Source: Alphaproteobacteria bacterium UBA3650 (GTDB lineage: Bacteria > Pseudomonadota > Alphaproteobacteria > CAAHEQ01 > UBA3637). Taken from it: a stretch of 64,000 bases of DNA. A program made the position numbers and the translations under genes. The first letter of the stretch is position 1, and every line of letters begins with the position of its first letter. Of the stretch, positions 1,393-63,813 are shown piece after piece. The stretch covers positions 2,376 to 66,375 of the forward strand of contig DFKH01000083.1 of assembly GCA_002373815.1 (NCBI GenBank), written 5' to 3'. The notes beneath the pieces are model-generated. The model made no database searches, was not told the DNA's origin, and worked only from the letters and a program-made list of their open reading frames with translations.

Positions 1393-1417
1393 GCTTGTAA
1401 TTTATTCGAATTAATTT

Positions 1418-2060: not shown

Positions 2061-2073
2061 ATAGTCTAAATCT

Positions 2074-3237: not shown

Positions 3238-3687
3238 GTTTATATTAAAAAATATAATATTAAAAAAACGATATATATCTATGGGGACATTGCCAAGGTG
3301 TCTTTCATTTTGGCAAATCTCTAATCTCAGATGTGGACTTTATAAGGCTGATTCAGTTTGAATCGGCAATTTGAGTTAGTATTCAGTTAAAAATTATCCC
3401 ATATTTTAATTTTATAAATGAGAAGTAAAAAACGAATCGGCATTAAAGGGAAAAAAGTGGATCAAAAATTGAAAATTTTACCCCCAGAATGGGCAAAATG
3501 GGGGTAAATAAAATTATAATAAAAATTATATATATCACAAAAACAGCATAAATTCTTTTATTATCATATAGTTATACAAAAACATCATTTTATTTTTATA
3601 TAAATTGACATTATATATTAATAAAGTACAACTATGCCATCAAAACACATGGTGTGTTTTGAATTAACTGTCAGGAAGGAGAAAAAA

Positions 3688-5018: not shown

Positions 5019-5064
5019 GGTACTCCTTTTTTCTAACTGGACACTATTTTAGCACAAAAAGAAG

Positions 5065-5090
5065 TCTTTGTGTCTTTTATAAGAAATAGG
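5065..5090 (-). promoter_or_regulatory. Repeat copy C: TCTTTGTGTCTTTTATAAGAAATAGG
   Basis: Shares the GTGTCTTTTATAA core with copy A. Its reverse complement is identical over 21 nt to 6764-6784. Lies 47-72 nt upstream of the deiminase-like gene start (5018). Confidence 0.4.
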
Positions 5091-5215
5091 AATTTTTAAC
5101 CTATCTTATTGTAATACAAAGAAAAATTAAAAAAGTTATCCTGCGGTTGTATATAAAAAATATAAATAAAAAAAATATGATAAATACAAACACAACACTA
5201 AAAAAAGGATAATTT

Positions 5216-6271
5216 ATGATTGAAACATTGAAGAGTAAAAAAACAGGCTTACCAAGATATCGAGCAAGAATTAGGGTAAAAAATGTCATAGATCAGTCTA
5301 AGACATTTAAGTACTATGATGATGCAAGTGCTTGGTACCACAAAATGATGGCTGACATTGAAAATTTTTCTAAATGTAATGGTTATGGTGCTAGTCGTGC
5401 CACTTTAGCAGAATGTGTGGATAAGTATTTAGCAGAAAACTATATCAAACCATCTGAGGCTTATGTTCTAAAATGGTGGAAACAACGTTTGGGCAACAAA
5501 AGATTGAGTGCTATTACACCAAATGATTTGTTGACTCATCGCTTAGAGTTATTGCAAACTGAGTACAAAATTGGACATGTATTTAAAATGAGGCAACCAG
5601 CCACAATCAACAAATACATTATTATTTTAAGTGGACTGATGACAACTGCCTGCAAAGAGTGGCAGATTATTTCAAGCAATCCTTGTCAACAAATCAAAAA
5701 ATTAAAGGAACCAAAAGGCAGAACACGCTATTTAAGTCATGATGAAATTCAAATTTTATTAAAGGCATGTGCTGAATCTAAAATGACTTATTTGTACCCA
5801 ATTGTTGTTTTGGCCTTGAGTACAGGAGCAAGACGCTCTGAAATTGTTAATTTAAAATGGCGGAACGTGTTATTGGATGAACATAGGCTTGTCTTTGAAC
5901 AAACAAAAAATGGGGACACGCGCAGTGTGCCTTTATGCGATAAAGCATTGGAAATTTTAACTCAACTTAAAAATGAACATCCACATACACAAGATTTTGA
6001 GCTGGTATTTCAAGGAAAAATAAAGGGACAACCAGTAGATTTTAAAAAGGCATGGCATACCGCGTTATCTGCTGCAGGCATTCAAAATTTTAGATTTCAC
6101 GATTTAAGACATACAGCAGCAACACATTTGTTACGCACTGGAATTGGCTTGATTCCACTTTCAGAAATTTTAGGTCATCACACCATGGATATGGTAAAAC
6201 GCTATGCGCATGTGATGACTGATTACAAAGAAACCTATGTTGCGCAAATGAATCAAAGTATTTTTCAATAA
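5216..6271 (+). CDS. int: tyrosine-type site-specific integrase (phage integrase family)
   Basis: C-terminal HDLRHTAATHLLRTG...LGHHTMDMVKRYAHV carries the R..H..R..Y catalytic box. Located next to a tRNA gene. Confidence 0.9.
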   Translation: MIETLKSKKTGLPRYRARIRVKNVIDQSKTFKYYDDASAWYHKMMADIENFSKCNGYGASRATLAECVDKYLAENYIKPSEAYVLKWWKQRLGNKRLSAITPNDLLTHRLELLQTEYKIGHVFKMRQPATINKYIIILSGLMTTACKEWQIISSNPCQQIKKLKEPKGRTRYLSHDEIQILLKACAESKMTYLYPIVVLALSTGARRSEIVNLKWRNVLLDEHRLVFEQTKNGDTRSVPLCDKALEILTQLKNEHPHTQDFELVFQGKIKGQPVDFKKAWHTALSAAGIQNFRFHDLRHTAATHLLRTGIGLIPLSEILGHHTMDMVKRYAHVMTDYKETYVAQMNQSIFQ

Positions 6272-6280
6272 GGAGGCAAC

Positions 6281-6739
6281 ATGAAAGAATATGACAAGAA
6301 AGTACGCGCAGAAATGCAAAAGTGGATGTCTGTGCAAGAAGCAAATTACAACATAGGGATTACCGTTGTCTTTAATAAGGATAATATTACAGAACAAGAG
6401 GCTTGGAGATACCTCAAAAATGCTTTTGGATATTATTATCGCAAGACACTTGGAAAAAAATGGTACTTAAAAAAGGACAAACAGTATGCGTTCATTGGTT
6501 GCAAAGAAATGGGCAAATATGGCGTCAATTTGCATTATCATCTTATGTTGGCTTTGGTACCTTATTCTTTTTGTGCCTTTATAAAAATGAATCGGCTCTT
6601 AAATAAGGGGTTGCGTAAATATATTTTGTCTGGCCATGTATTTTGTTGGCCTTTAATGGAAAAAGGATGGGGAGCTTACTTATCAAAAGAGGTTAAGCCG
6701 AACACAATCAGCCTTTTTGCACAAAAAGATTTGTTTTAA
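6281..6739 (+). CDS. small HUH-endonuclease-like (Rep-like) protein
   Basis: Three HUH motifs in canonical order: motif 1-like GITVVF, motif 2 LHYHLML (H-u-H-u-u-u), motif 3-like YLSKE (Y..K). Lies directly downstream of the integrase. Confidence 0.4.
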   Translation: MKEYDKKVRAEMQKWMSVQEANYNIGITVVFNKDNITEQEAWRYLKNAFGYYYRKTLGKKWYLKKDKQYAFIGCKEMGKYGVNLHYHLMLALVPYSFCAFIKMNRLLNKGLRKYILSGHVFCWPLMEKGWGAYLSKEVKPNTISLFAQKDLF

Positions 6740-6763
6740 ATCAATAAGTTATTATTTTATACT

Positions 6764-6784
6764 CCTATTTCTTATAAAAGACAC
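6764..6784 (+). promoter_or_regulatory. Repeat copy D: CCTATTTCTTATAAAAGACAC (inverted relative to copies A/C/B, sense relative to the downstream + strand gene)
   Basis: 21-nt exact reverse-complement match to 5067-5087. Lies 52 nt upstream of the 6836 start. Confidence 0.4.
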
Positions 6785-6835
6785 TTTTGTTTTGGAAAAT
6801 GCTACAATGCGATTCGTAAAAGAAAGGAGCAAATT

Positions 6836-7687
6836 ATGGAATTATTAAAAGATATGTGTCAACGCATGCAAAATGAATTGAAAGGCGCAAAAGTAACAGA
6901 TTTAAAAAATCAGCAAGAAACAATCGCAACAGGTTATCCTAATTTGGATGAGGTTCTAGGTGGTGGCTTACCAGTTGGGAAATTGATTGTTCTTTCTCAC
7001 CACAGAAAAGAACGAATTTACCAATCATACTTTTTTAAGCAGATTATTTGTTTAATTTTAAATCGTTTTCACAAAGAAAACTCAGGCAACAAAAAGCAAA
7101 ACAACCTTGCCTATTTTAGTTATTTACACCCTGAATTTTTTGCACTTGAGTTACTTAAAATTAAAGGAAAGGATAATTGGTTCACTGGATTGACAGAGGC
7201 AACCAACCAATCACAGATAAACTATCCAATTTATCTGCATCAACTTGATAAGACAGAGAATCTACCTGACATTATGGAGCAAACTGTTCACAAATTAGGT
7301 TGTTCCATTGTTTGTTTAGATATGGCTGATATTTGGGTAACACACAATGGCAAAAGTATTCTGGACACTTTAATTCAACTACAAGAACTTGCAAGACAAC
7401 TCAATATTTGTATTTTTGTGTCATTATATAAAGAAGAACACGACTTAAACCACGAGCAAGATATCGCAGATATTGTGTTATCATTAGATGATTTTTGTGC
7501 TCTGCATAGCGACTTAGATGATTATCCAGTCTTTTCCGTGACAGTTTATAACAATATTCGACATAAATGGTATGATCAAAGGTTATGGGCTGAAAACTGC
7601 TATTTTCAAATAAATGACAAATATATTCTACCTTGCCCCCAGCAGTATTATGATAAATTGTTGGAAAAATATATTGATGATGAGTAA
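6836..7687 (+). CDS. DnaB-helicase C-terminal-domain-like (RecA-fold) protein lacking a Walker A motif
   Basis: TGYPNLDEVLGGGLPVGKLIVL resembles the DnaB/RadA TG.p.LD...gGl..g.l.ii segment, but GxxxxGK[ST] is absent. The later LIQLQELARQLNICIFVSLYKEEHDLNHEQDIADIVLSLD resembles the DnaB H4 region. Confidence 0.45.
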   Translation: MELLKDMCQRMQNELKGAKVTDLKNQQETIATGYPNLDEVLGGGLPVGKLIVLSHHRKERIYQSYFFKQIICLILNRFHKENSGNKKQNNLAYFSYLHPEFFALELLKIKGKDNWFTGLTEATNQSQINYPIYLHQLDKTENLPDIMEQTVHKLGCSIVCLDMADIWVTHNGKSILDTLIQLQELARQLNICIFVSLYKEEHDLNHEQDIADIVLSLDDFCALHSDLDDYPVFSVTVYNNIRHKWYDQRLWAENCYFQINDKYILPCPQQYYDKLLEKYIDDE

Positions 7688-7703
7688 GCGGAGCCAATAA
7701 AAA

Positions 7704-7779
<76 letters not shown>

Positions 7780-7851
7780 AACAGAGCTATTATGCCATAA
7801 ATACAAAGAAAAATCAAGGTGTTTTTAAGTTACCGTTTTTTACTGGATTCA

Positions 7852-12514: not shown

Positions 12515-13174
12515 TTACTCACTAACTAAATTATCACCTGGACCTTGCGGCGCCATTGGAGAGGCAGGTTGTTGTCTGGCCTGTTGTGGTTGTGCCACCG
12601 GACGGCCTTGCTGTTGTATTCCCTCTTGATCGGGGTTTTGTGCTGCCACCATACCATACAACAACTTATGATTTAAATCATCTTCCAAAGCCGTTTTCCT
12701 GAGAACTGGATTCTTATTTAAATACCACAGCAAATTGCGGCCAAAATCGTCTGTTGCTGATAAGTTAGCACCCGCAGCTTCTAATAACTCCATAATTTGT
12801 TTATTTGGGGCATAATATGCTGCAAACAAAATCAAAGGAATTTGTTTTGGAGCACCTACAATCGGAAACGCATCCAACGGAACAACAGCATTTGCTCGAT
12901 TTTGATCTTGGCGCAAAATAGCTTCTAGCACATCTGGATTTCCACGACGGATTGCCAATTGGGTTAAGGTTCCGCCACAACGCACTTGTTCGTCAAACAC
13001 CACACCCCGTTGAATCAGTGCTTGAATTTCCTCAGCCCCTCTTGCATTTACAATTAAATTTTGAAGCGGCGTTAAAGCACACTCCCCTGCCTTTTGAGCC
13101 AATGAAGGCGTAGCAATCAAAGCACACACAGACAATAATAATAATTTTTTCATGGAATTCCCCCTTTTTATCAA
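12515..13174 (-). CDS. secreted ankyrin-repeat protein
   Basis: Signal peptide MKKLLLLSVCALIATPSLA. Ankyrin-like repeats (GGTLTQLAIRRGNPDVLEAIL..., PLILFAAYYAPNKQIMELLEAAGANL...). Pro/Gln-rich C-terminal tail. Confidence 0.65.
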   Translation of the reverse strand: MIKRGNSMKKLLLLSVCALIATPSLAQKAGECALTPLQNLIVNARGAEEIQALIQRGVVFDEQVRCGGTLTQLAIRRGNPDVLEAILRQDQNRANAVVPLDAFPIVGAPKQIPLILFAAYYAPNKQIMELLEAAGANLSATDDFGRNLLWYLNKNPVLRKTALEDDLNHKLLYGMVAAQNPDQEGIQQQGRPVAQPQQARQQPASPMAPQGPGDNLVSE

Positions 13175-44135: not shown

Positions 44136-47100
44136 TCAAGGGCTGTATTCTCTTTTTGCAGCGACCACATTAATACAAGGTTTTCCACTTTGACATGTTG
44201 CATTACACGCCTCTGTACAACCAGCATTTCCGTTTGTTACTGAGAAGGTACATTTACCACCATCTCCCAAGAATGAGACATTATCATCGGATGTAGTTAT
44301 CACAGCACGACCACAAGACTCCCCGTCACCGCCTGTACAGCTACTCCCTATCGTACAATATTGGCTGTCATTTGGATTTGTATCTCTCTTTCCACTGTAG
44401 TTGCTACACCATTTTTTAGTTGCTCGCCCAGAACCAGAACTTGTTGTTTTATCTAAAATGGCGCCAGCACATGAAAATTGCGCCCAGTCACCATATCTTG
44501 TCGTTCCTGTAAATTGCAATTGATATAACATATTATTGACTGTGGTAAATTCAAAAAGTGTCGTTGTCTGACATGCTTGTGCCCCACATGCACTTTTTAT
44601 CCCTCCTGAGATGTTGGATGTATTAGTCGCTGTGCATTTTTGTTCATTGCCAATAACACCATATCCACTTTTACACACACACTTTTTGGTAGCCGCATTA
44701 TATGTAGAATTATCGTCACATTGCACGCATTTCTTTTGTGTTGCATCATAATGATGATTTGCAGGACATACCTCGCATTTATGAGATGTCGTATTGCATA
44801 TTGGCAAACTTTGAGGACATGAAGCAGAATCATTGCTCACATAATTTTTGGTACATGTACATTGTCCATTACTGCATGTCGGTGCCTTTTGTGGACATTT
44901 ACCATCTCCATCTGCTTTTGGCGTCGAATAATTATCCTTACATGTACATAAACCGCCACCATCTGTTTTATCACAGTATGGCTTTAATTCATTGCTACAT
45001 TTTCTCGTTCCTGAAGAAGCTCCAAGATTGGCTGTACACTCCACACACTTGCCAGAACTCTCATTAAAATTCGGCTTTCCACTTGGACAAGCGCAAGTGT
45101 GATTTGTGGTATTACATATTTTATCACCCTCACATTCATCATCAGCGGTGCATTCAACACAGACTCCATTTCCATCGGATCCGGCTTCCCAGCAAACAGG
45201 TTTACCCGTAGTTTTTGCTGATTGCCATGGTGAATAGTTTTGTGCAGAACTTTCAGATGCTGTATCTGTTGTTGAAAATGATGCCACCCCATACTCCAAG
45301 GATTCAACTTTATTGCAACCAATATCTGTCCACGCTCCAGAGATAGAATTATAACATGTCACACATTTTTTCGTAAAAATATTAAATACTGGCGTTGTTC
45401 CCGAACAATTGCATTCCCCTGTTTCAGGGTTAAAATCAACGCTACCACAATCTGTACTGCATATACCCTGCTCTCTTAGACAATGCATCCTATCCACTGA
45501 TTTTTCTTTACAATCACCATCGTTGGTGCATTCTGAACATCCGCGTCCATTTGTCTGTTGAACGCAATAAGGCTGTTCCACTGTTTCACCTGCTACCGAC
45601 CCTGTTTTATTTTCACACCCTTTGTTTTTATCTTTTAATTCGGTATATAACACGCACGTCTCGCATGTCCATGAGTTGGGATCACATATCTTTCCTGCGC
45701 CACAATGTGAATCTTCACTACATTCATGACATTCCCCTTCTACATAGTGTGGCAAGCTACCATCCCCAATTTCAGCACACGTCTTACATCCATTTTGTGT
45801 ACATTTTTGCCCCTCTTCACAACTTGAATTCTTACAGGCCACACAAACATGATTTTCAGTATCACAATATGGTTTGGAAGAATCTTGTCCTGCACACCAT
45901 GCGTCTGTCACACATCCATTGATACAAGCACCATCCGCTATACTATATTGTCCTACTTCGCAACCACAATATTTTTGTATTTCCGATTCTGTTGGGGTAG
46001 GCAGTACATCAGACGTATAGCCTGTCATTTCCGTTCCAGAACAGCATATAAATCCCCCTGAAATATCAGTTGGAGCACGAGTTTTACCTTCTCCACAACC
46101 ACAAAGGCGAATGGCTTTGGATTTAGACTCATCAGAATCGTCCATTCCCTCATATGTGCCAGCATCAGTATCGCAACAAACACCCTCCGTTTTGCTTCCC
46201 GATGCACAGCCGCATACGTTGGCATCTACTGTATTATAACCGTTTTTATCCCATTTTTTATGTTTTAAACAACAGTCATTCGTTTCCTCATTTATCGTTC
46301 CTCCCTCTGGGCAACCACATTTTTCGTCTTTACATGTGACGCATAACCATGATATATCTTCTGCCCACTCACCAGATGTTTTATCTTCGTTCCAAATGTA
46401 TTCATGACCATTTTGACAGCAAATGTAGTTACCATCATCCTCCACTGTTACACTGCCTTCTGGACATTGGATAGGACATTCACCTTCCTTACATCCAATC
46501 ACATCTCCACACCAATTAAAGCCCAAATTTTTACATGCTGCTTCCGAACAATTTTTACGTTTTTCATCATTATTACATTTACAATTTTCGTCTTCATTGT
46601 CTGAAACAATCGTTGCACTTTGCATCCGATAATCTCCAACACAGCAATATAACAGCCCATCCTTAAAATCTAATTTAAATAGTTCATCAACTTTATATGT
46701 TGTCTCATTTTTTGTAACCGTCTTTGGGCAATTACACAATGAGCTTTCACCTTTGTCAGAAATGCTATCACTTGCACCCGTTGCAACACTTTCAACTTGG
46801 CGGTGCTCATGACAGCAGACATAATAATTTCCTGGGTTTGATAATATCATAGATTGGTAGATTCCATCTCCATAACAACCACATTGGGGCATCAGCCTAT
46901 TTGATGACCATGAGCCATTTTCATAAATCAGTCCACTTATACTTACACCTGGGGTTGTTGATGTACTACAACAATACTGGTTACTTCTATATGTCAAGAA
47001 ATTTCCGCCTGCTGTTGTACATATTGTTGATGGATCTTCTTCATCCTCAGAAGATGTTTCATTTTCTTCATCTTCGGCAGATGATAGAAATAATGCATCT

Positions 47101-47327
47101 GTTTCTTCTTCTGAAGAAAGCTCAGCAACAACGGGGTCTGTCAAGGAACCATCTGTCTCAACGATAGGAGAACTTAAAGCCATACTAGCCGAACTTAAGG
47201 ATGTGGCGATATCTGTCAATTGTGCTTCCGAATTAAAGCGAAAACGGATTGCATCTACATCAGCTTTTGTAACAGATGCTTCTCCAAAACACAAAAGAGC
47301 CAATAAAATACAATTCCTTATGCGCAT
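44136..47327 (-). CDS. giant secreted cysteine-rich repeat protein (eukaryote-like extracellular Cys-repeat architecture)
   Basis: Signal peptide MRIRNCILLALLCFGEASVTKA. Acidic Ser/Glu/Asp-rich linker. Then ~900 aa dense in CxC, CC and CxxC pairs with recurring ~20-aa units such as GKCVEC, KKCVQC, KKCVTC and GECNCSG. Confidence 0.6.
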   Translation of the reverse strand: MRIRNCILLALLCFGEASVTKADVDAIRFRFNSEAQLTDIATSLSSASMALSSPIVETDGSLTDPVVAELSSEEETDALFLSSAEDEENETSSEDEEDPSTICTTAGGNFLTYRSNQYCCSTSTTPGVSISGLIYENGSWSSNRLMPQCGCYGDGIYQSMILSNPGNYYVCCHEHRQVESVATGASDSISDKGESSLCNCPKTVTKNETTYKVDELFKLDFKDGLLYCCVGDYRMQSATIVSDNEDENCKCNNDEKRKNCSEAACKNLGFNWCGDVIGCKEGECPIQCPEGSVTVEDDGNYICCQNGHEYIWNEDKTSGEWAEDISWLCVTCKDEKCGCPEGGTINEETNDCCLKHKKWDKNGYNTVDANVCGCASGSKTEGVCCDTDAGTYEGMDDSDESKSKAIRLCGCGEGKTRAPTDISGGFICCSGTEMTGYTSDVLPTPTESEIQKYCGCEVGQYSIADGACINGCVTDAWCAGQDSSKPYCDTENHVCVACKNSSCEEGQKCTQNGCKTCAEIGDGSLPHYVEGECHECSEDSHCGAGKICDPNSWTCETCVLYTELKDKNKGCENKTGSVAGETVEQPYCVQQTNGRGCSECTNDGDCKEKSVDRMHCLREQGICSTDCGSVDFNPETGECNCSGTTPVFNIFTKKCVTCYNSISGAWTDIGCNKVESLEYGVASFSTTDTASESSAQNYSPWQSAKTTGKPVCWEAGSDGNGVCVECTADDECEGDKICNTTNHTCACPSGKPNFNESSGKCVECTANLGASSGTRKCSNELKPYCDKTDGGGLCTCKDNYSTPKADGDGKCPQKAPTCSNGQCTCTKNYVSNDSASCPQSLPICNTTSHKCEVCPANHHYDATQKKCVQCDDNSTYNAATKKCVCKSGYGVIGNEQKCTATNTSNISGGIKSACGAQACQTTTLFEFTTVNNMLYQLQFTGTTRYGDWAQFSCAGAILDKTTSSGSGRATKKWCSNYSGKRDTNPNDSQYCTIGSSCTGGDGESCGRAVITTSDDNVSFLGDGGKCTFSVTNGNAGCTEACNATCQSGKPCINVVAAKREYSP

Positions 47328-51700: not shown

Positions 51701-51844
51701 TCCTCCCCCTATTGACAGATTTTAGGAAAATTTTTGCGCAATGTCAATGATTTTATGAAACAAAAAGGTACCTGTTTTTCCTATTTCTTGACAAATAATG
51801 GCCTTCGTGTTATACTGATTTATGTATTTTTCAAAGGAGGACTC

Positions 51845-53350
51845 ATGCCCCGAAACAAACATCTTCAAAATGGTGATTTTATAAAGCTTGCCCCTTCAGG
51901 ATTGGAAGAACCCAAAGTCAAGTCCTCGGATGATTACATTCATCTTGAGAATGCCCTTTTCCCTCGCTCTCAAAAGCCGCGTCGCACAAAAGGCATCAAG
52001 CGTGTAGCTGGTGTTGCTGCTGCGCTGACTCTTTTGTCCGCAGGAGGCATGAAATCTTGTTCCGATACTGAAAATACACAAGCAACGCAAGAAGCCAGAG
52101 ACAAAGCACGTATCACTTGGCTTGCAGAAACAAGCGGTCAACAACTTCACTTTCCTGCAATTTCGCAAGAGGCAATCTATGACACTTTTCAAGCTTCTGA
52201 GGTAGCTGCTGAACAAAATACGCACAATCACATTTTACGTGTTTTTCAAAATATTCCAACAGCAAAGGGTATAGAGCCTCAACAATTAAACCTTTGTGCT
52301 TCTGCCTTTAAAACCTTTACCACATCACCCAAAGGTGTTTGTTTTGCCCCCAATGTTCCAGAATCTTGTTATACAAATTTTTTAGACATGGCTCTTTGTA
52401 TGCCTTCATCAGATTTACAATATCTAGCCAATAATGAAATTGAAAAAATGTTGTTTGCTCCAGAAATTTTGGCTGCCAAAAAACTTTTGCTTAAAAGTCC
52501 TACAAATACTCAAGACTTTGCGCAACGTTCTTTTGAGTGTGGATTTAGTTACAAATTGCATCAAGCCATGTTGAAACCGATTAAAAAACATGAAGGTAAT
52601 GTATACTTTATTTATTGGGACAAAACTGGCGCTCCAACTCTCTCTTCTGGTATCAATTTATCTGTATATCATTTTCTTTTGAAGTACATTCGCTTTCAAA
52701 ATTCTTCAAAGATACAAAATATTTTATATCCCAATAATCCCGAATTGCGATCAAAAGATCGTTACATAATACTCACACGCGACAATTTAAATACACTTAC
52801 AAAGTATGTCATGGAAAACGACAAAAAAAAGCTTGATAATGCCAACAATTTTAAATCTCTTTATCATTTAAATGTCCACCCACAAGACAGAGCCAAACTG
52901 GACCAATATCTTGATCTTATTTTAAGCGGCGTTATACGGACAGCCGCAACTGACATGGGAATTGGCAGACAAGAACGTGGGCCCGAACTGTTTTTTGGCA
53001 CACCAGATCATCCTATCCCAATTGAAGCTCCGAAAGTTGCTACAGATATCGCTTTCAGAGGAGGAAGTCTTAAAAAATCAAATGATTTTAGGAAAGCTTA
53101 CTGCGAACATGATTGGAAAACAGTTCGCGAAGAATGTGTTCCAGGCTTTTTTAAATCATCCAATTTTTGGCGTCGTCATATACACGGGCATCGTTTTAGC
53201 TGGCGACAATCTCAAATAGCACGCATTATGAATCCAAATTGGTTTACACGAAATACCTGGATTTTTGGTTTGTTAACACTCTCTTTTTTGGTGTCGCAAC
53301 GCAAAAAGATTGTGCAATTCAAGCAAAAACGTTCAAAGGGCAAGATTTAA
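51845..53350 (+). CDS. hypothetical protein with C-terminal transmembrane segment
   Basis: ATG at 51845 preceded by AAAGGAGG. No recognised domain. C-terminal WIFGLLTLSFLVS hydrophobic helix followed by a basic tail. Confidence 0.45.
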   Translation: MPRNKHLQNGDFIKLAPSGLEEPKVKSSDDYIHLENALFPRSQKPRRTKGIKRVAGVAAALTLLSAGGMKSCSDTENTQATQEARDKARITWLAETSGQQLHFPAISQEAIYDTFQASEVAAEQNTHNHILRVFQNIPTAKGIEPQQLNLCASAFKTFTTSPKGVCFAPNVPESCYTNFLDMALCMPSSDLQYLANNEIEKMLFAPEILAAKKLLLKSPTNTQDFAQRSFECGFSYKLHQAMLKPIKKHEGNVYFIYWDKTGAPTLSSGINLSVYHFLLKYIRFQNSSKIQNILYPNNPELRSKDRYIILTRDNLNTLTKYVMENDKKKLDNANNFKSLYHLNVHPQDRAKLDQYLDLILSGVIRTAATDMGIGRQERGPELFFGTPDHPIPIEAPKVATDIAFRGGSLKKSNDFRKAYCEHDWKTVREECVPGFFKSSNFWRRHIHGHRFSWRQSQIARIMNPNWFTRNTWIFGLLTLSFLVSQRKKIVQFKQKRSKGKI

Positions 53351-55233: not shown

Positions 55234-56754
55234 TTAATATTCAACAGAATTGTTTCGAAGCGTTCTTTTGATCTGCTTACGGTGACGTTGATTAGCAAGT
55301 CTTTCTTCCTTTGTTGGTTTTTTATGCCAATGGACGATTTCTTGTTCTTCCTCAGTCAAATCAGGCATTTCATATGTTAAATAACTTTTCTTTGCCTCAT
55401 GAGGTTGAGGTGCTTGTTGTTTCTTTTTTCTAGATTTAGTTTGGATATTGTATTTGTGTGATTCAAAATTTGACGTTTCAATGAACGGAGAATATACGCC
55501 TAATGCATGGTCTGCCAATTGTTTTGGTAATGGGGTATCATGAATATTGACAATACACACGGATAATCCTGCTTCTTTAGCCTTTTGCAGAGAAGCCATA
55601 AAATCGGTGTCTTTGGTTAACAAATAAATTGTATCAATTGAGGAATCAAAGCGAGCCAATGTCATATCATACACAATTCTGTCATCCACATCATACTGTT
55701 GAATATTCGCTTCAAAATCACTGGCTGTTCTTTTATTATGGGGTGTCATCCATTTAGTTTCTTTCAAAATGGAATAATAAGGTTCCCTTTGCTGGATAAT
55801 ACCTTGACTTACAATCGCCCCGTCAATTTTGTCTGGTACATCCGCTCTTATGTTATCTTTGAGCGATTTTTTAGGATTTCTAATTTTGCTGTGCAATTTT
55901 TTTGTTGCGTAACAAATCTTTTCCAAATTTCCCACACCTAATCGTTTAGAAATTTGATCAATTAACTGAGAAATATTTTTTCCGTTGATTTCTAATTTAT
56001 TATTGTGGAGATATGCCGCAATACATCCCATATCCAACATCAAAATATTTCTTTTTATAGGATTTTTTTTACGCAAATCTTTTAATAATTTGGGCATATA
56101 TTCTTCTAAATAAATACCTAATTTCTCTTGATCTTCCTTTATATTCGATATGGAAGACATCACTGGTTCTTGAGAAGTTAAAGAGGCATCTAATTCTGGT
56201 CTTTTGCCGTAAAAGCGAATCCAATCAACATCCAAACCAAAAGCATTTGTCACATCAGCTGCATATCTCAGATCTTGAGGATTTCCCAATACAAAAACTT
56301 TCTCTACCTTGTGACGAATAGCTGTTTCCGCCATTGCATCCACCAGCTTACTTGTAACTCCTTTTTTGGGGACTTGCAACACAAAATCATCATCTGTCAA
56401 TGTTTTAGGGTCTTTTTCAAAACTTTCAGGCTTCATAATCCAGGCCCCATAATCCATTTTTTGACTCCGCCCCCAAAATGTATTAAATTCCACTGCATTT
56501 GGTATTTTTGCTTTATGTAGTGTTGGTTTCATATCTTCTTCATTAAATTTTCTCTTACTAATGGGAAAAACGGCATCGTATAAAGGACGGGCGCCATAGT
56601 AGTTTACTTTCACCTTCAATTCAGGATCACTTTTTTTAATTTCAGACACAGCCTTATACACAAATTGACAAATTGTTTGTGGTGTGTATGGTTCTTTGGC
56701 TTCTAAAATTTGATTTTTAAGTACTTCTCCGTCTATTAATAATACTGTTTCCAT
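55234..56754 (-). CDS. NYN/LabA-like domain protein with a large N-terminal uncharacterised region
   Basis: C-terminal region IYLLTKDTDFMASLQKAKEAGLSVCIVN resembles the NYN (LabA-like) ribonuclease-fold core. Confidence 0.45.
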   Translation of the reverse strand: METVLLIDGEVLKNQILEAKEPYTPQTICQFVYKAVSEIKKSDPELKVKVNYYGARPLYDAVFPISKRKFNEEDMKPTLHKAKIPNAVEFNTFWGRSQKMDYGAWIMKPESFEKDPKTLTDDDFVLQVPKKGVTSKLVDAMAETAIRHKVEKVFVLGNPQDLRYAADVTNAFGLDVDWIRFYGKRPELDASLTSQEPVMSSISNIKEDQEKLGIYLEEYMPKLLKDLRKKNPIKRNILMLDMGCIAAYLHNNKLEINGKNISQLIDQISKRLGVGNLEKICYATKKLHSKIRNPKKSLKDNIRADVPDKIDGAIVSQGIIQQREPYYSILKETKWMTPHNKRTASDFEANIQQYDVDDRIVYDMTLARFDSSIDTIYLLTKDTDFMASLQKAKEAGLSVCIVNIHDTPLPKQLADHALGVYSPFIETSNFESHKYNIQTKSRKKKQQAPQPHEAKKSYLTYEMPDLTEEEQEIVHWHKKPTKEERLANQRHRKQIKRTLRNNSVEY

Positions 56755-58031: not shown

Positions 58032-58113
58032 ATTTGTCCTTTGGAAAAAATGTAAAAGAATGTGATCGACCGACCACGTGATATATTATAGCACAAACTT
58101 TTTATTTGTCAAG

Positions 58114-59418
58114 TCAGAAGTTATCTGAGGACTCACCTACAACAACTACATATTCTATTATATCGCCCCTTGATCGTGCTTCTTCAGCTTTTTGACGCGC
58201 TTGTTCCTCCTCGGCCAACCTTTTAGCATACAATTCTGACGAGCCCTTGGTATAAACACCAATGAAATCCCCATTGTTGATCATAAACACAAACGGCCGA
58301 TCGGCAATAAAGGGGATGGACCAATCTTGACGCTCTAATCTGGACTCAAAAAACGCAGCCGTCAACATATCAATCACTGTTGCGGCACTAGCCTCTGTTC
58401 CTTTTTCATTCACACCAATGTTCGCCTGATGAATAATTTTATCCACATAGTAAGGCTTATCACTCAAACCACCCAATTCAGCTGTCGCTGGATCAAAAAC
58501 CTTCTCAATACCCCATTTTTTAAAGAATTCTGGCATATTTGTAATCTTATAATCCAAATTGAATTTAGGTAATCGCAACATCACAGGCGCTTTATGATAC
58601 TTTAGATACAAATCTCCTGCTTGTAAATCTTGAATGAACTTATTAAAATCTACACCTTCTTTTGGCAAGAAAATGTACATAGCGTCCCCGTTTTTATAAG
58701 GAAGTCGTACAGACTGCATTTGCTCATCTTGATAATAATCCACTATCTGCCCTTCATAACGCATCATATCCACTTTGTCCAACTGTCCATCCAGCGAATG
58801 AAAATCATCGATCAGCGTACCATTTTCATCAAAAAACGTTTCCCACTCATCCTTAAAATACACCGTATTCACCAAAAAAAGACGACCTCCTTGTTCCAAA
58901 TTTTCCTCGTTTAATAAATGCGAAATACGTCCTTTTGTCTTTTCCTGAATCCATTCATTGATAACCGAGGTATTGTGAGGCAGAGGCTTTACCTCAGAAA
59001 ACAACTCATTTTTCATTTTCTCTTGATATTCTGGTTTAAAGTCATTACCCCAGATGGAATTATTGATTTCAAATTGTTTTTTTTGACTTATATAGGATTG
59101 CAACGCCTGATTCACAGATTGTTTTCTTCGACTTATAAAGGGTTGCGATGCCTGATTCACATAGGGAACATTTAAACGTAAAATAATATTACCCAGTTCC
59201 TTTAAACTCTCTCCCTCAGCCCCATTGGTCAACAAAGCTGCGGCAGCATAAACGGATAGTGGCGACACCACAAAATTATCTTTTTTGTTTTCAAAAGCTG
59301 TCTTTAAAAATTTTGTGGCCAAATATAAATCTTGATCTTCTGGCGAAAAACGAAGCTCTTTTGCTTCAATCCCCAATGACAAAAATAATGAACAAAATAA
59401 AATAATTTTTTTAAACAT
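58114..59418 (-). CDS. secreted serpin (inhibitory-type reactive-centre loop) with C-terminal extension
   Basis: Signal peptide MFKKIILFCSLFLSLGIEA. Hinge GTEASAAT followed by the conserved IPFIADRPFVFMI strand. ~45-aa charged C-terminal tail. Confidence 0.8.
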   Translation of the reverse strand: MFKKIILFCSLFLSLGIEAKELRFSPEDQDLYLATKFLKTAFENKKDNFVVSPLSVYAAAALLTNGAEGESLKELGNIILRLNVPYVNQASQPFISRRKQSVNQALQSYISQKKQFEINNSIWGNDFKPEYQEKMKNELFSEVKPLPHNTSVINEWIQEKTKGRISHLLNEENLEQGGRLFLVNTVYFKDEWETFFDENGTLIDDFHSLDGQLDKVDMMRYEGQIVDYYQDEQMQSVRLPYKNGDAMYIFLPKEGVDFNKFIQDLQAGDLYLKYHKAPVMLRLPKFNLDYKITNMPEFFKKWGIEKVFDPATAELGGLSDKPYYVDKIIHQANIGVNEKGTEASAATVIDMLTAAFFESRLERQDWSIPFIADRPFVFMINNGDFIGVYTKGSSELYAKRLAEEEQARQKAEEARSRGDIIEYVVVVGESSDNF

Positions 59419-59559
59419 AACACCATCCCTTTTTTATCCATTATAATTTATGTATCAAGCAAATGTCAATATTCTACCTTCAAAGTCTGGCCATTTTCCT
59501 TCAAAAACTACCTTGACTTTTAGGCGTTTTTTTGCTAATTTCTCCTTATAGGAGGCGTT

Positions 59560-60378: not shown

Positions 60379-60966
60379 ATGGCACAAAGACATACTTGGT
60401 TTCAAAATATTGGCCGTTTATTTAAAAAACGCCTTGTTGTTCCTATTATCCGTTCTCCACATCCACCGGAACATACTGCAAGAGGTGTTGCTATTGGTAC
60501 CATGTGGGCTATGACGCCATTAGTTGGCATTCAGATGTGGTTGGTATCCATGACATGGATTTTTTACAAAAAAGTCCTTAAAAAATCTTTTTCATTGCCT
60601 TTAGGTTTGGCATTTACTTGGCTCACGAATGTTTTTACAATGGTACCCGTCTATTATGTTTTTTACGTCACAGGTCAAATGATGATGGGTAATTGGGATT
60701 CCATCAGTGGATATAGTCATCTCAAAAATATTATTCATCAAACATTTATGTCTGATTTATCTTTTGTTGATGAGTGGGTCTTATTTTTTAAACTTATTTT
60801 ACAAGATTGGGGATTTGCTATGATTATTGGCTGTATCCCATGGATGGTTATTGGTTATTGGTTGGGATCTCATTTAACATTACAGTTTTTAAAAGATTAT
60901 CATCTGATTCGCGAAAAAAGGCGTTTAGCAAAACTTCAAAAACATTTGGAGGAAATACACGAATGA
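60379..60966 (+). CDS. DUF2062 membrane protein
   Basis: RSPHPPEHTARGVAIGTMWAMTPLVGIQM is the conserved DUF2062 core. Confidence 0.55.
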   Translation: MAQRHTWFQNIGRLFKKRLVVPIIRSPHPPEHTARGVAIGTMWAMTPLVGIQMWLVSMTWIFYKKVLKKSFSLPLGLAFTWLTNVFTMVPVYYVFYVTGQMMMGNWDSISGYSHLKNIIHQTFMSDLSFVDEWVLFFKLILQDWGFAMIIGCIPWMVIGYWLGSHLTLQFLKDYHLIREKRRLAKLQKHLEEIHE

Positions 60967-61592
60967 TCTCTGTTTTTCAAGATATTCCTTTTATTCAAGC
61001 TGGATTTTGTAATGCTGAAGAAAGTTTGTCGCTTGAACACCCTATTTTAATGTCACAACAACATGGCACAGATGTACTTGTTTTGACAAGCGATCCTTCC
61101 GATTTACCAGAATGTGATGCTTTGGCAACCGCAGTTCCCTATTTAAGACTTACCGTTAAAACGGCCGATTGCGCCCCTGTTTTATTTGTAGATCCTCATG
61201 CTAAAATCATTGCGGCAGCACATGCTGGATGGAAAGGCGCTTTTCAAGGTGTTTTGGAAACAACCATTTTGACAATGCTGAGAATGGGCGCTTCTTTGCA
61301 AAATATTTGTGCTGCAGTGGGGCCTCATCTGACGCAAAAAAGTTTTCAAGTTCAACCTCAAATGCAGGCCCTTTTTCCCAAAACAGAACATCTTTTTTTT
61401 AAAACGACAGATGATGGCATACATTTTGATTTTACAGGATATATTTCTCATCGATTGAATCGAATTGGTCTTAAACAAATTGAAATAATAAATGTGGATA
61501 CATTTACAAATTTATCCTACAACAGCTTTCGCCGAGATCCACAAAATCCAGCTCGACAATACAGTTTTATTCAACTAACAAAAGGAGTCTAA
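60963..61592 (+). CDS. pgeF: PgeF/YfiH family (Cu-oxidase_4, purine nucleoside phosphorylase/peptidoglycan editing factor)
   Basis: TADCAPVLFVD...AAAHAGWKG conserved motifs. ATG at 60963 overlaps the upstream stop. Confidence 0.75.
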   Translation: MISVFQDIPFIQAGFCNAEESLSLEHPILMSQQHGTDVLVLTSDPSDLPECDALATAVPYLRLTVKTADCAPVLFVDPHAKIIAAAHAGWKGAFQGVLETTILTMLRMGASLQNICAAVGPHLTQKSFQVQPQMQALFPKTEHLFFKTTDDGIHFDFTGYISHRLNRIGLKQIEIINVDTFTNLSYNSFRRDPQNPARQYSFIQLTKGV

Positions 61593-61593: not shown

Positions 61594-62490
61594 ATGTATG
61601 ATAATATTGAATTTGTTATTTGCGCCGCAGGAGAATGTACCCGCAACTTTCCTCATTCAAAAGCCATTGCTCATAAATCGTTATTACCCATGGGAGATGT
61701 GCGCATCATTGATTATACCTTACAAGATATTGTTCGGGCTGGGGGGCGCCACATTACTTTTGTTTGTTCTAATCAAAAAGTCATTGATGATTTTAAGCAT
61801 GCTTTAGCAACGGATACTCAGACAGAGCAAAAATTGCGTACCAAAGGCAAAAATGACATTGCTGATATTTTAAAAAGCACTTTTTTACCAGAGGATATTG
61901 ATTTAAAGTTTGTGATTCAAGATGAACCTTTAGGTACTGGACATGTTTTATATGTTGCCCGAGAAGCCATTCAAAAGCGTCACGTTGTTTTAATTTTCCC
62001 TGACGATATCATTATATCCAAAAATCAGAAGCAATCCCATTTCAAACGCCTTGTGGATACTTTTTTAAAGAACCCAAAAACAATTTTGATCACAGGTCTA
62101 TGGCGAGAAGATGTTAGTAACAATGCTATATTAGTCAATAATCGCATTATAGAGAAACCCAAAAATCCAACATCTCATATTGCAGGCATGTCCCCCAATG
62201 TTATCCCGAACGAGATTATTCAATTTTTGGCGGAACAGGGACCCGAAAAAGTTCAAAAAGCGCGTGAAGAACATAAAGAATGGATTTATCAAGATTCCGT
62301 CAATAGCTTTTTGGATCAAGGCGGAGAAGCCCAAGGGTTTAAGGTGGAAATGTTTTTAAAGGCGGATGAAGATCAAATGCTGGATACAGGTAATTTAGCT
62401 TTATATGAACAATGTCAACTCAAAATGCTCCTTGAACATTCTCAATACAAAGAACAAAACAAGGAATTTATCAAAAAAATATTGGATTAA
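61594..62490 (+). CDS. sugar-nucleotidyltransferase family protein (GalU/NTP_transferase-like)
   Basis: N-terminal VICAAGECTRNFPHSKAIAHKSLLPMGD resembles the G.GTR..P.TK..PK..LP nucleotidyltransferase motif. Confidence 0.55.
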   Translation: MYDNIEFVICAAGECTRNFPHSKAIAHKSLLPMGDVRIIDYTLQDIVRAGGRHITFVCSNQKVIDDFKHALATDTQTEQKLRTKGKNDIADILKSTFLPEDIDLKFVIQDEPLGTGHVLYVAREAIQKRHVVLIFPDDIIISKNQKQSHFKRLVDTFLKNPKTILITGLWREDVSNNAILVNNRIIEKPKNPTSHIAGMSPNVIPNEIIQFLAEQGPEKVQKAREEHKEWIYQDSVNSFLDQGGEAQGFKVEMFLKADEDQMLDTGNLALYEQCQLKMLLEHSQYKEQNKEFIKKILD

Positions 62491-63020
62491 CGTAACATTA
62501 AACAAACCCTTCCATTGTTCTGATCGCTACAATCTGTTTCACAAGCAGAATAGTCGGATCCGTAGTCATAGGCTGCGTCTGCAGCACTTTTACCATCTTC
62601 AATTGCGACCATATTGGCATAAGACATAATCACCAATCTTGAACAGGCTATATCTGGCAACTCTGTCATCATGATTCCAAATCGATCTGCCTTAGCGATA
62701 CCCTTGTCTGGTGAAATAATTTTTATGGCTCCAAATGGCCCCAGCACACCATCACTATCCATAGGTTGAGCCCCAGATAAAATATCATTGTTTAAAACAG
62801 CGTCTGCAATGGTTTCGGCTTTTGGATACCCTGCACTCCATGAATATAAATCAATGATTCCTTGAGATAATTCTTCTGCATCATTAAAGGTTGCATTGAT
62901 TTTATACATATTCACACCAAAGCCAATCCCCGCAATAGCACCATACATGATAACCCCCATAATGGCCAGAACGCCTAACATTTCCAACATAGTTCGTCCA
63001 GATTCGTTATGATTTTTCAT
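62487..63020 (-). CDS. type IV pilin-like protein with prepilin (class III) leader
   Basis: MKNHNESG|RTMLEMLGVLAIMGVIMYGAI has Gly-1, Glu+5 and a hydrophobic helix. C-terminal Cys pairs. Start trimmed from the ORF-track extension. Confidence 0.55.
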   Translation of the reverse strand: MKNHNESGRTMLEMLGVLAIMGVIMYGAIAGIGFGVNMYKINATFNDAEELSQGIIDLYSWSAGYPKAETIADAVLNNDILSGAQPMDSDGVLGPFGAIKIISPDKGIAKADRFGIMMTELPDIACSRLVIMSYANMVAIEDGKSAADAAYDYGSDYSACETDCSDQNNGRVCLMLR

Positions 63021-63813
63021 GCGTGCAATCTCCTTTTTCTTTTTTATACCCCGAAAATCCAAAAGTTTCAAGCATTTTTTCTAATCCCTTTTCATTTAAG
63101 ATTTTTTGTTGCTTTTTTGAAAAAGGAATCTGCAGCAAATCATTTGTCAATACGCCATATTTTTTCATCATTTTCAATGTTGTGTTCGCTCGAGGGCCTG
63201 TTATTATTTTAAACATTTCATCTCGACGTCTGTCCATTGATAGGGTGGATAGGTATGGTATAATTTTCGGCAGGGCTTGTTCCACTTGTTTATCCATTTT
63301 TTTTGTCCCCATTTTTGCCCAAAAACGAAAATATCTGAGCAATCTTAGATAATCTTCTTGCATCCGTTTGCTTGCATTTCCCACAAAGCGTACATTATGC
63401 GCTTGTAAATCTTTTAATCCATTTACATAATCATAGATTGTGCCATTCACATCTGCATAAAGCGCATTGATTGTAAAATCACGTCGGAGTGCATCAGTTT
63501 TCCATACTTTTGTGAATTTGACGACGGCATGTCGTCCATCCGTTTGAACATCTTTTCTTAAAGTTGTAATTTCAAATGGAGTCCCATTCACTTTGGCCAC
63601 AATTGTTCCAAATACTCGTCCAATTTCCAGATAGGCAATGTTATTTTTTTTCAATTGCTCTATTACTTCATCAGGTGTTAAAGTGGTTGCCATATCTCGA
63701 TCTTGAAAATGTTTATGCATTAAATAATCGCGCACACATCCGCCGACCAAACGCACTTTTCCATCTAGAATATCATATAAAAAAAGTGATTTTTCATCCC
63801 ATAATTTTTGCAT
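63007..63813 (-). CDS. cca: CCA-adding tRNA nucleotidyltransferase (PolyA_pol family)
   Basis: VRLVGGCVRDYLM...DRDMATT...RRDFTINALY head-domain motifs. Start trimmed to MQKLWDEK. Confidence 0.8.
   Translation of the reverse strand: MQKLWDEKSLFLYDILDGKVRLVGGCVRDYLMHKHFQDRDMATTLTPDEVIEQLKKNNIAYLEIGRVFGTIVAKVNGTPFEITTLRKDVQTDGRHAVVKFTKVWKTDALRRDFTINALYADVNGTIYDYVNGLKDLQAHNVRFVGNASKRMQEDYLRLLRYFRFWAKMGTKKMDKQVEQALPKIIPYLSTLSMDRRRDEMFKIITGPRANTTLKMMKKYGVLTNDLLQIPFSKKQQKILNEKGLEKMLETFGFSGYKKEKGDCTHEKS

Follow-up and report, generated by a model that had tools for sequence, protein, structure and literature searches.

The gene under study occupies positions 58114 to 59418 on the minus strand of the window, i.e., the whole 64,000-nt stretch of DNA that was analysed, and consists of 434 codons from an ATG start followed by a TGA stop (58114-58116), as delimited by the ORF list and Pfam PF00079. 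A putative sigma-70-type promoter (TTGACA-18-TATAAT; 59440..59469, minus strand) is located 21 nt upstream of the ATG and matches the consensus at 12/12 hexamer positions, and a Shine-Dalgarno-like stretch (GGGATGG) lies between the promoter and the start codon. At the orthologous locus L004, the -35 box of this promoter is identical and the -10 box reads TACAAT. We infer that the protein is made from this strong promoter of its own. On the other side, the gene is bounded by the rho promoter (TTGACA-16-TATAAT; 58085..58112, minus strand), which begins one base past the stop codon, also matches at 12/12 hexamer positions and carries a TG extension; a 32-nt block here is identical in L004. With a gene/window GC ratio of 0.986 (~0.99), the gene looks native to the surrounding DNA.

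The ORF product is a genuine full-length member of the serpin superfamily (MEROPS family I4), as the original prediction had proposed for exactly this ORF without giving its strand. It matched the Pfam profile Serpin PF00079 with E = 2.6e-70 (238 bits against a cut-off of 27 bits) over residues 34-382, corresponding to profile positions 7-355 of 370, and 195 serpin sequences of the PDB were matched (best E = 6e-35). The serpin domain (residues 34-382; 58273..59319, minus strand) was delimited by Pfam, AF2, Foldseek and the alignment with human alpha-1-antitrypsin (A1AT). All the usual serpin helices and strands were present in the AF2 model (pLDDT 85.3, pTM 0.80), and its Foldseek comparison with serpin structures gave a probability of 1.00 and E = 1e-29. 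The A1AT sequence used for the alignment was checked at 14 landmark positions; 38 of the 54 family-conserved A1AT positions are identical in the query. Conserved residues include S52, S55 and H330 of the shutter, along with N48 and N184, and W192, K285 and E338 of the breach; S52, S55, H330, N184, W192, K285 and E338 are identical to A1AT S53, S56, H334, N186, W194, K290 and E342, respectively. The s1C/s4B region pointed out earlier was also recovered: the motif IPFIADRPFVFMI (residues 368-380; 58279..58317, minus strand) aligns with VKFNKPFVFLM of A1AT, and its F370, A372, P375 and F376 are invariant or nearly so among 35 clade members. In comparison with an orthologue of 78% identity (the 78% orthologue), residues 367-391 showed a dN/dS of 0.02, a ratio that, like the others given below, is rough because dS in this comparison (about 1.0-1.4) is near saturation. 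The s4B-s5B turn is 5 residues shorter in the query according to the A1AT alignment.

The hinge of the reactive-centre loop (RCL), EKGTEASAAT (residues 338-347, P17-P8; 58378..58407, minus strand), was delimited by clade conservation and the orthologue comparison. It contains the GTEASAAT segment (residues 340-347, P15-P8) that had been called canonical, and rightly so. The clade shares the consensus E-x-G-T-x-A-x-A-x-T, which, with E338, G340, T341, A343, S344, A345 and A346 in the query, fits the inhibitory consensus, and the E, G, T, A, A and T at P17, P15, P14, P12, P10 and P8 are invariant or nearly so among the 35 clade members (35/35 for Ala at both P12 and P10). All the hinge residues (10/10) are identical in the 78% orthologue. 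The query hinge also agrees with the inhibitory serpin motif cited in PMC8233489. The adjoining variable RCL, VIDMLTAAFFESRLERQDW (residues 348-366; 58321..58377, minus strand), is identical to the 78% orthologue at only 8/19 residues (binomial P = 2e-4 against the core identity), with a dN of 0.70 versus 0.118 in the core, and column entropy exceeds 3 bits at P5, P3, P2 and P2'-P6' among the 35 clade members. Such a hypervariable bait beside an invariant hinge is the pattern expected of an inhibitor with changing targets. As to the claim that the protein is a functional inhibitor, the sequence speaks in its favour, with the expected hinge, shutter and breach residues all present.

The variable RCL contains a prime-side insertion of ~10 residues (357-366), seen against both conserpin-AATRCL and A1AT, and the distance from P17 to the RPF proline is 37 in the query versus 27 in A1AT. 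A semi-conserved Leu-Glu motif is found at P7'-P8'. The A1AT alignment that had been suggested for assigning P1 was run, and it placed the predicted scissile pair, by alignment only, at P1 Ala354-P1' Ala355 (58354..58359, minus strand), opposite Met358-Ser359 of A1AT. Ala354 is 17 residues after hinge Glu338, the canonical distance in the alignment, with the 10 extra loop residues on the prime side; because the loop is ~10 residues longer there than in A1AT, the real scissile bond could differ from Ala354-Ala355. A conserved basic residue at P9'/P10' was considered as the real P1 and judged unlikely, since the P side would then be ~26 rather than the canonical 17 residues. The bait V-I-D-M-L-T-A/A-F-F (core MLTA/AFF) is hydrophobic, and the stretch P8-P5' contains neither Lys nor Arg; this points to targets of the elastase, chymotrypsin or subtilisin type rather than to trypsin-like ones. 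Both P1 (Phe) and the loop differ in the 78% orthologue. In the AF2 model, hinge residues 340-348 were modelled as an inserted strand, loop residues 351-365 had pLDDT <50, and the best structural matches were latent or cleaved serpins; this loop-inserted state could reflect either a tendency to a non-inhibitory latent form or a modelling habit.

A signal peptide had been proposed at the N-terminus, and we agree with this assignment, judged by rule (n-region, h-region and small -3/-1 residues). The segment MFKKIILFCSLFLSLGIEA (residues 1-19; 59362..59418, minus strand) has a basic n-region (K3 and K4) and a hydrophobic core (residues 5-17; mean Kyte-Doolittle 2.68) and is followed by KE, with the SPase I cut predicted after I-E-A and before K20. 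The closest clade members also have Ala at -1, and the export signal is kept across the serpin clade. Lipoprotein anchoring was rejected, as there is no lipobox ([LVI][ASTVI][GAS]C): the sole Cys, C9, is preceded by I-L-F and is not shared by relatives. Genes for LPS, LolA and outer-membrane proteins in the 64-kb window mark the host as a diderm; therefore, the Sec signal shows export to the periplasm only and not release from the cell, and the earlier description of the protein as secreted goes too far. The 64-kb window shows no evident route of secretion past the periplasm, and a Pfam scan found no serine protease or type II secretion genes among its 41 ORFs. The final location of the serpin would be the cell envelope, reached via the Sec pathway.

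The identical protein was present on 5 contigs from at least 3 samples and was found in a sheep rumen metagenome (run SRR873603). About 30 species-level MAGs of gut or rumen Alphaproteobacteria carry a serpin. The clade of the query occurs in dozens of such MAGs, and all the clade relatives come from gut or rumen MAGs, including those from caecum, rectum and human gut. Hence the view that serpins are sporadic in bacteria is true generally but not of this lineage, in which they are common. The rumen is a pre-gastric chamber, and proteolysis there is mainly microbial and protozoal. Copy number varies among the relatives, with tandem arrays of 2-4 copies. One sub-branch of the clade is without helix F altogether, and our literature search found no report of natural helix-F-less serpins. 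Only the 78% orthologue retains the lgt-serpin-rho gene order, and in five other neighbourhoods from the clade the serpin gene lies in unrelated housekeeping surroundings. No linked protease gene or operon partner was found in the 6 different neighbourhoods examined, which favours exogenous targets. Recent horizontal transfer from a eukaryote, which the original prediction had proposed to examine by phylogeny, was rejected given the GC ratio of 0.986 and the fact that all named relatives are bacterial; eukaryote-to-bacterium transfer of serpins was also without phylogenetic support in Spence et al. 2021 (PMC8233489). The Ser55 codon is TCC and is uninformative on transfer.

Past the position of A1AT Pro391, the protein continues for 42 residues (393-434), slightly fewer than the ~45 stated before. 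This tail is indeed atypical: 59 residues follow the RPF proline, versus a median of 22 (range 20-28) in 78 outgroup bacterial serpins, none of which (0/78) reaches 33. Charged residues make up 16/42 of the tail (E8, R4, K2 and D2). The Glu/Arg-rich character attributed to the whole tail applies to its first ~25 residues only, with a predicted helix at 395-416 (block-mean pLDDT 84-92 in AF2), and not to the remainder, whose end IIEYVVVVGESSDNF is hydrophobic and then acidic. The proximal tail, GSSELYAKRLAEEEQARQKAEE (residues 392-413; 58180..58245, minus strand), covers most of this helix and is identical to the 78% orthologue at 21/22 residues, with 9 synonymous and 1 non-synonymous change (a rough dN/dS of 0.014); it is constrained like the core and not significantly more conserved than it (P = 0.056). 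The distal tail, ARSRGDIIEYVVVVGESSDNF (residues 414-434; 58117..58179, minus strand), defined by the orthologue comparison and AF2, has 4/17 alignable residues identical and a similarly rough dN/dS of 0.77; an indel of 7 residues and another stop position set it apart from the orthologue, and pLDDT falls to 50-57 at residues 421-434. Under the identity rate of the distal tail, the identity of the proximal tail has P = 1e-12. By this sequence comparison, the tail is made of two parts, a proximal helix under constraint and a distal stretch that evolves almost neutrally. No Pfam or NCBIfam domain matched the tail, a phmmer search with residues 392-434 against 1.84 billion representatives found no homologues at E <= 0.001, and other clade members have unrelated tails or none. 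As the protein ends in Phe, an outer-membrane beta-signal and a PDZ-binding YxF-type C-terminus were considered and then rejected, because there is no alternating hydrophobic pattern and the orthologue end differs (...DIEAE). A type I secretion signal was ruled out by the N-terminal Sec signal, and a coiled coil by the absence of a heptad pattern on inspection.

Considering these features, the query is probably a functional inhibitory serpin that is expressed from its own strong promoter and Sec-exported into the envelope of an uncultured rumen/gut alphaproteobacterium, where it would protect against exogenous proteases. By analogy with the family, a serine protease would attack the exposed RCL near Ala354-Ala355, and the acyl-enzyme would be trapped as hinge P15-P8 inserts into beta-sheet A. 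The serpin would thereby likely shield the envelope or cell surface from exogenous rumen/gut proteases, which might be microbial, protozoal or host enzymes, a protective role likely comparable to that of ecotin, miropin or siropins. Host proteases are no likelier as targets than microbial or protozoal ones. The first ~22 tail residues would form a selected helix with an accessory role; close to the breach it may help to hold the native, metastable state, as the thermopin tail does, or it may act as an exosite; the last ~21 appear essentially unconstrained.

The original prediction had aimed the inhibitor at host proteases. In the strong form of this idea, the serpin would leave the cell and act specifically against host enzymes, e.g., pancreatic or neutrophil elastase, like the Bifidobacterium longum serpin and siropins, which we consider rather unlikely: the identical protein comes from the sheep rumen, with its mainly microbial/protozoal proteolysis, and the gene context points to no target. 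A P1 Ala with small or hydrophobic neighbours does fit elastase-type specificity, MAGs from caecum, rectum and human gut are among the sources of the clade, and host elastases and proteinase 3 are targets of gut bacterial serpins that have been characterised (PMC5127057, PMC8201313). However, the host is a diderm with no secretion route past the periplasm evident in the window, and the Phe at P1 and the different loop of the orthologue indicate that there is no fixed host target. Location in the periplasm of a diderm, housekeeping neighbours (lgt and rho) and a strong constitutive-looking promoter would suit a housekeeping brake on the cell's own periplasmic serine proteases (e.g., HtrA/DegP-type or Prc-type) rather than a means of defence. 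Such a role is decidedly improbable, as none of the 6 neighbourhoods has a linked protease gene, bait hypervariability among close species (8/19 identical) is not what a conserved endogenous partner would lead one to expect, and relatives vary in copy number, with arrays of 2-4 copies.

The protein might instead be non-inhibitory or prone to latency, with a long loop that lets the hinge self-insert, and serve as a binding or structural protein or as a substrate only. The AF2 strand at 340-348, the best structural matches to latent tengpin and cleaved/latent serpins, and a loop 10 residues longer than in A1AT point in this direction, but we regard it as very improbable: the hinge, shutter and breach residues are strictly conserved, as is typical of inhibitory serpins, the modelled loop state is weak evidence because loop pLDDT is <50, and all the extra residues fall on the prime side, whose length is less critical to the serpin mechanism. 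Another question is whether the C-terminal tail as a whole might be former intergenic DNA, lying between the serpin core and the rho promoter, that is read through without function. The ORF reaches as far as the rho -35 box, evolution of the distal 21 residues is nearly neutral, with the indel and altered stop, and the tail is without homologues among the 1.84 billion representatives and unrelated or absent in the clade. Nevertheless, read-through of the whole tail is unlikely, given a proximal part that keeps 21/22 residues despite 9 synonymous changes and is predicted as a confident helix; read-through is an explanation that holds for the distal tail only.

The favoured reading, a Sec-exported envelope inhibitor of exogenous proteases, leaves room for a further proposal, namely that the gut/rumen alphaproteobacterial serpins are a structurally distinct subgroup and that the tail helix is a built-in regulator in the query, which we think quite unlikely. 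This subgroup would be recognised by an insertion on the prime side of the loop, reaching ~10 residues and bearing a semi-conserved Leu-Glu...Trp/Pro motif, by a shorter s4B-s5B turn, by C-terminal extensions that recur but are specific to each lineage, and by the helix-F-less sub-branch. The regulator would hold the metastable state and so compensate for a loop whose length allows self-insertion with s1C left in place, or would act as an exosite for the target protease.

The query serpin is an ordinary, correctly recognised member of an already known protein kind; as it stands, we claim no demonstrated new function for it, and its interest as a family member is modest. To our knowledge, only a handful of gut bacterial serpins have been characterised, and none of them from Alphaproteobacteria. 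The query provides a well-formed and, by its promoter, apparently well-expressed candidate from a lineage rich in serpins. Moreover, the long prime-side loop, the selected tail helix and the helix-F-less relatives offer naturally occurring variation with which the tuning of serpin metastability can be studied. Work is under way to use gut bacterial serpins against inflammation driven by proteases (siropins, PMC5127057; gut serpinome review, PMC8201313).

Among known systems, miropin (Tannerella forsythia), siropins (Eubacterium siraeum), the Bifidobacterium longum serpin and tengpin belong to the same family and have the same fold; tengpin (E = 2e-28) and miropin (E = 9e-27) were matched in sequence, and latent tengpin was the top structural match. 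The bacterial group T serpins (a group of Spence et al. 2021) and the query all have a canonical inhibitory hinge and a signal for export at the N-terminus; their habitats are host-associated or anaerobic, and their genes stand alone, with a presumed protective role against exogenous proteases (PMC8201313, PMC5127057). Their pairwise identity is only ~25-30%. The main differences of the query from known bacterial serpins are, as predicted from its sequence, a longer bait loop and a lineage-specific tail: compared with group T serpins, it has ~10 extra prime-side residues (relative to A1AT), Leu-Glu at P7'-P8' and a 42-residue orphan tail. Its signal is of the SPase I type and not a lipoprotein anchor such as that of miropin; a lipobox is seen in many outgroup relatives. 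Thermopin (Thermobifida fusca) also extends past the canonical C-terminus; its C-terminal region, like that of miropin, touches the breach, at the top of sheet A (PMC8233489). Purifying selection on the proximal tail of the query fits a thermopin-like role in stabilising the native state, although this tail is much longer than that of thermopin, helical, highly charged, without detectable sequence relatives and from a mesophile. With A1AT, the query shares identical residues at S53, S56, W194, K290, H334, E342, G344 and T345 (A1AT numbering), and it differs in its P1 (Ala vs Met), the 10-residue prime-side insertion, the shorter s4B-s5B turn, a 39-residue extension past the A1AT C-terminus, and in being bacterial and exported to the periplasm. 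Ecotin of E. coli is a Sec-exported envelope protease inhibitor that protects against exogenous host proteases. Together with Brucella Omp19, which is reported to be an envelope protease inhibitor (PMC6607954), it would be a functional analogue of the query, both being Sec-exported inhibitors in a diderm envelope that act against exogenous host proteases. Their folds are unrelated to that of serpins, and they act by reversible tight binding rather than by the serpin suicide-substrate trap.

The 434-codon ORF at 58114–59418 on the minus strand, taken from the ORF list of the window, matched the Pfam family Serpin (PF00079) over residues 34–382 (E = 2.6e-70, 238 bits; cut-off, 27 bits). Additionally, 195 distinct PDB serpin sequences matched its product, with conserpin at the top (E = 6e-35), and an NCBIfam search returned no model for the protein. 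The serpin reported in the original prediction was recovered at exactly these coordinates, together with the quoted hinge GTEASAAT (residues 340–347) and s1C/s4B string IPFIADRPFVFMI (residues 368–380). Every defining feature of inhibitory serpins that was checked, in the sequence or in the predicted fold, was found.

In a MAFFT alignment with 11 relatives and human alpha-1-antitrypsin (A1AT; sequence checked at 14 landmark positions), the protein agreed with A1AT at 38 of 54 family-conserved positions. The shutter (N48, S52, P53, S55, N184 and H330) and breach (W192, K285 and E338) residues were all kept. The hinge from P17 to P8 (E338-K-G-T-E-A-S-A-A-T347) agrees with the inhibitory consensus given by Spence et al. 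2021 (PMC8233489) and is near-invariant in the clade of related gut and rumen serpins, bearing out the canonical hinge originally proposed. In the 35 clade members, little or no variation was seen at P17 (Glu), P15 (Gly), P14 (Thr), P12 (Ala), P10 (Ala) and P8 (Thr), and P5, P3, P2 and P2'–P6' were hypervariable (column entropy >3 bits). Alignment with A1AT, suggested earlier as the way to assign P1, paired Ala354 with the A1AT P1 Met both in the MAFFT alignment and in the HMMER alignment to conserpin-AATRCL; therefore, the scissile pair is predicted to be Ala354–Ala355 (V-I-D-M-L-T-A/A-F-F). Compared with A1AT, the prime side carries a 10-residue insertion (357–366, FESRLERQDW), and the distance from the P17 Glu to the RPF-motif Pro is 37 instead of 27. 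This distance had a median of 36 (range 29–41) in the clade and 32 (27–35) in 78 outgroup bacterial serpins. The commonest clade residues in the inserted segment were Leu at P7' (17/30) and Glu at P8' (16/31), and P12' was semi-conserved as Trp or Pro. The s4B–s5B turn is shorter in the clade than in A1AT, by 5 residues.

The gene was compared codon by codon (Nei-Gojobori) with its 78%-identity orthologue in a sister species (locus L004), where dS is near saturation (about 1.0–1.4) and the dN/dS ratios are consequently rough. The core (residues 20–337) was identical at 251/311 positions (dN/dS 0.115, dN 0.118), the hinge (338–347) at 10/10 (dN/dS 0) and s1C–s5B (367–391) at 24/25 (dN/dS 0.02), whereas the variable loop (348–366) retained only 8/19 identities (dN/dS 0.35, dN 0.70), below the core rate (binomial P = 2e-4). 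The orthologue has Phe at the aligned P1, in place of Ala. At the sequence level, a bait that evolves quickly beside a hinge that stays fixed is what would be expected if an inhibitor follows targets that vary.

An AlphaFold2 model built from a 35-sequence alignment (pLDDT 85.3, pTM 0.80) contained all the usual serpin helices and strands, with a disordered loop at 351–365 (pLDDT <50), an additional helix at 395–416 (block-mean pLDDT 84–92) and low confidence at 421–434. The charged C-terminal extension noticed in the original prediction is real, comprising 42 rather than ~45 residues (393–434, past the A1AT Pro391 position; E8, S5, A5, R4, V4, K2, D2). Its proximal part (392–413) was identical to the orthologue at 21/22 positions (dN/dS 0.014; 9 synonymous and 1 non-synonymous changes), whereas the distal part (414–434) kept 4/17 (dN/dS 0.77), with a 7-residue indel and a different stop. 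The proximal identity would be very improbable under the distal rate (P = 1e-12); against the core rate, P was 0.056, so the constraint on this part matches that on the core and does not demonstrably exceed it. At least 33 residues followed the RPF proline in 10/29 measurable clade members and 0/78 outgroup serpins, and the long clade tails were unrelated in sequence, being basic and Pro-rich in P0006, P0008 and P0013 and poly-acidic in P0007. Since a phmmer search of residues 392–434 against 1.84 billion representative proteins also found nothing at E ≤ 0.001, the tail is an orphan common only to the sister species. Judging from codons and model, it is a selected proximal helix plus an unconstrained distal end reaching the rho promoter. 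That the whole tail is functionless is doubtful, and for the proximal part refuted. The C-terminal extension of thermopin packs on the breach, and in miropin the C-terminal part touches it via a Glu (PMC8233489); by analogy, the most economical reading is that the selected helix would control native-state stability or loop insertion, and alternatively it might form an exosite.

Ahead of the predicted cut before KE, the N-terminus (MFKKIILFCSLFLSLGIEA) shows a basic n-region, a hydrophobic core (mean Kyte-Doolittle 2.68) and an Ala at −1 that is kept in the closest clade members. It contains no lipobox, whereas many outgroup Firmicutes and Bacteroidota serpins have one of the form ...GC or ...SC. 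Genes for LpxC, LpxK, KdtA, a lipid A acyltransferase, LolA and an outer-membrane beta-barrel protein are present in the window, indicating a diderm host; the signal peptide thus supports predicted export to the periplasm, and 'secreted', as first proposed, holds only to that extent.

A perfect TTGACA-18-TATAAT promoter (59469–59440, minus strand) lies 21 nt upstream of the serpin ATG, accompanied by a GGGATGG ribosome-binding stretch; the orthologue has the same −35 box and TACAAT at −10. A second perfect promoter, for rho (TTGACA-16-TATAAT plus leader, 58062–58112, minus strand), starts 1 base past the serpin stop codon within a 32-nt block identical in L004. Downstream of it, the leader contains a small GC hairpin (58077–58062) and a T-rich tract; this region, just past the block, is similar but not identical in L004. 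The leader is possibly an autoregulatory element of rho, and may also act as the serpin terminator. The GC content of the serpin gene (0.375) is close to that of the window (0.380). The genes lgt, DUF2062, YfiH and an NTP transferase diverge from it, and rho, an NYN-domain gene and PEPCK lie downstream. The DUF2062 ORF and the mechanically called YfiH/Cu-oxidase_4 ORF (60379–60966 and 60807–61592, plus strand) overlap by 160 nt; the public call for the latter is shorter (209 vs 261 aa), so its true start is probably further downstream. Between rho and PEPCK, the ORF at 55234–56754 (minus strand), whose 506-aa product matches the NYN domain weakly, is missing from the otherwise syntenic L004 and is therefore a lineage-specific insertion.

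Elsewhere, positions 1–7800 form a low-GC stretch (0.30–0.34 vs 0.38–0.41) with an AbiEii-like AAA_21 ATPase (95–772), a UDG-superfamily protein (2074–2709), a PAD_porph/agmatine-deiminase-like protein (4188–5018), a phage-type integrase (5216–6271) and, at its end, tRNA-Thr(cgt) (7704–7779); by its sequence, it looks like an island integrated at a tRNA gene. Pfam gave no match at E ≤ 1e-5 for the ORFs at 44136–47327 (minus, 1063 aa) and 51734–53350 (plus, 538 aa), and none for the 194-aa ORF at 62487–63071 (minus), whose N-terminus (…SGRTMLEMLGVLAIMGVI…, Glu at +5) is similar to the class III signal of a type IV pilin or pseudopilin.

Five contigs, drawn from 3 or more samples, carry the identical serpin; one of these sources is the sheep rumen metagenome SRR873603 of Shi et al. 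2014 (PMC4158751). Its clade comprises ~40 proteins with 36–78% identity, the named ones being "MAG: Alphaproteobacteria bacterium"; outside it, Clostridia, Bacteroidales and other bacteria follow at 28–33%. When a single genome was scanned for each GTDB species, a relative turned up in ~30 Alphaproteobacteria MAGs, from ruminant rumen, omasum, caecum and rectum and from human gut. The lgt–serpin–rho order was retained only in L004, and other clade serpins adjoin RND efflux, AnmK/TsaD, PTS-EIIA/arylsulfotransferase or MerR/RHH genes. Some genomes also have tandem copies. Serpins are therefore widespread and mobile in the lineage, and the gene stands alone as a unit. Tandem arrays of 2–4 serpin genes (L006 8001–10271, L081 3023–11762, L082 8001–11827, L047 and L076) were carried by, among others, an uncultured Rhodospirillales rumen MAG, a Vallitaleaceae MAG and an Ignavibacteria MAG, indicating local gene-family expansion. 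Ankyrin-repeat proteins are encoded at 12515–13174 (minus) and beside a relative's serpin (L087 12680–13155); with the low GC, they hint that these Alphaproteobacteria live in association with a eukaryote (host or protist). The suggested eukaryote-to-bacterium transfer left no sign in this analysis, and the phylogeny of Spence et al. 2021 gives no support for such serpin transfer (PMC8233489).

Eight clade members (P0005, P0007, P0009, P0010, P0012, P0014, P0016 and P0017; for example, L087 6001–7155) lack the ~30–40 residues spanning helix F, and this sub-branch has a bulky residue at P11 (H/Y/Q/K/F). The AF2 model of P0012, from a 180-kb contig of a Hadza human-gut sample, was a confident serpin fold without helix F (pLDDT 84.8), in which hE and s1A lead through a 10-residue loop directly to s3A (pLDDT 91–96 there). 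The literature searched yielded no description of serpins naturally devoid of helix F, and these proteins, outside the window, may be more novel than the window serpin itself.

The window protein would be exported by Sec and would inhibit, as a suicide substrate, serine proteases that prefer a small or hydrophobic P1 residue (of the elastase, chymotrypsin or subtilisin type), and it probably guards a rumen/gut alphaproteobacterium's envelope or surface against exogenous proteases. That it specifically targets host proteases, as originally suggested, is possible but not favoured, the organism being from the rumen. Regulation of endogenous periplasmic proteases would suit the predicted compartment and is considered unlikely; none of the 41 window ORFs scanned with Pfam was found to encode a protease or part of a secretion system, and a protease gene never lay beside the serpin in the clade neighbourhoods examined. 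A latent or non-inhibitory protein is also unlikely. The hinge (340–348) was modelled as a strand, and the top Foldseek matches were latent tengpin (2pef), cleaved serpin 42Da and latent antithrombin chains, with native serpins ranking lower, so the model is in a relaxed-like state, with s1C (368–371) not displaced. Either the modelling tends towards this state by habit or the long loop may be able to self-insert, and the observation counts as weak evidence.

The protein has its nearest characterised counterparts in tengpin, miropin, the siropins and the B. longum serpin (bacterial group T), at ~25–30% identity, and is, judged on its sequence, a serpin of an already known kind with lineage-specific decorations of putative function.
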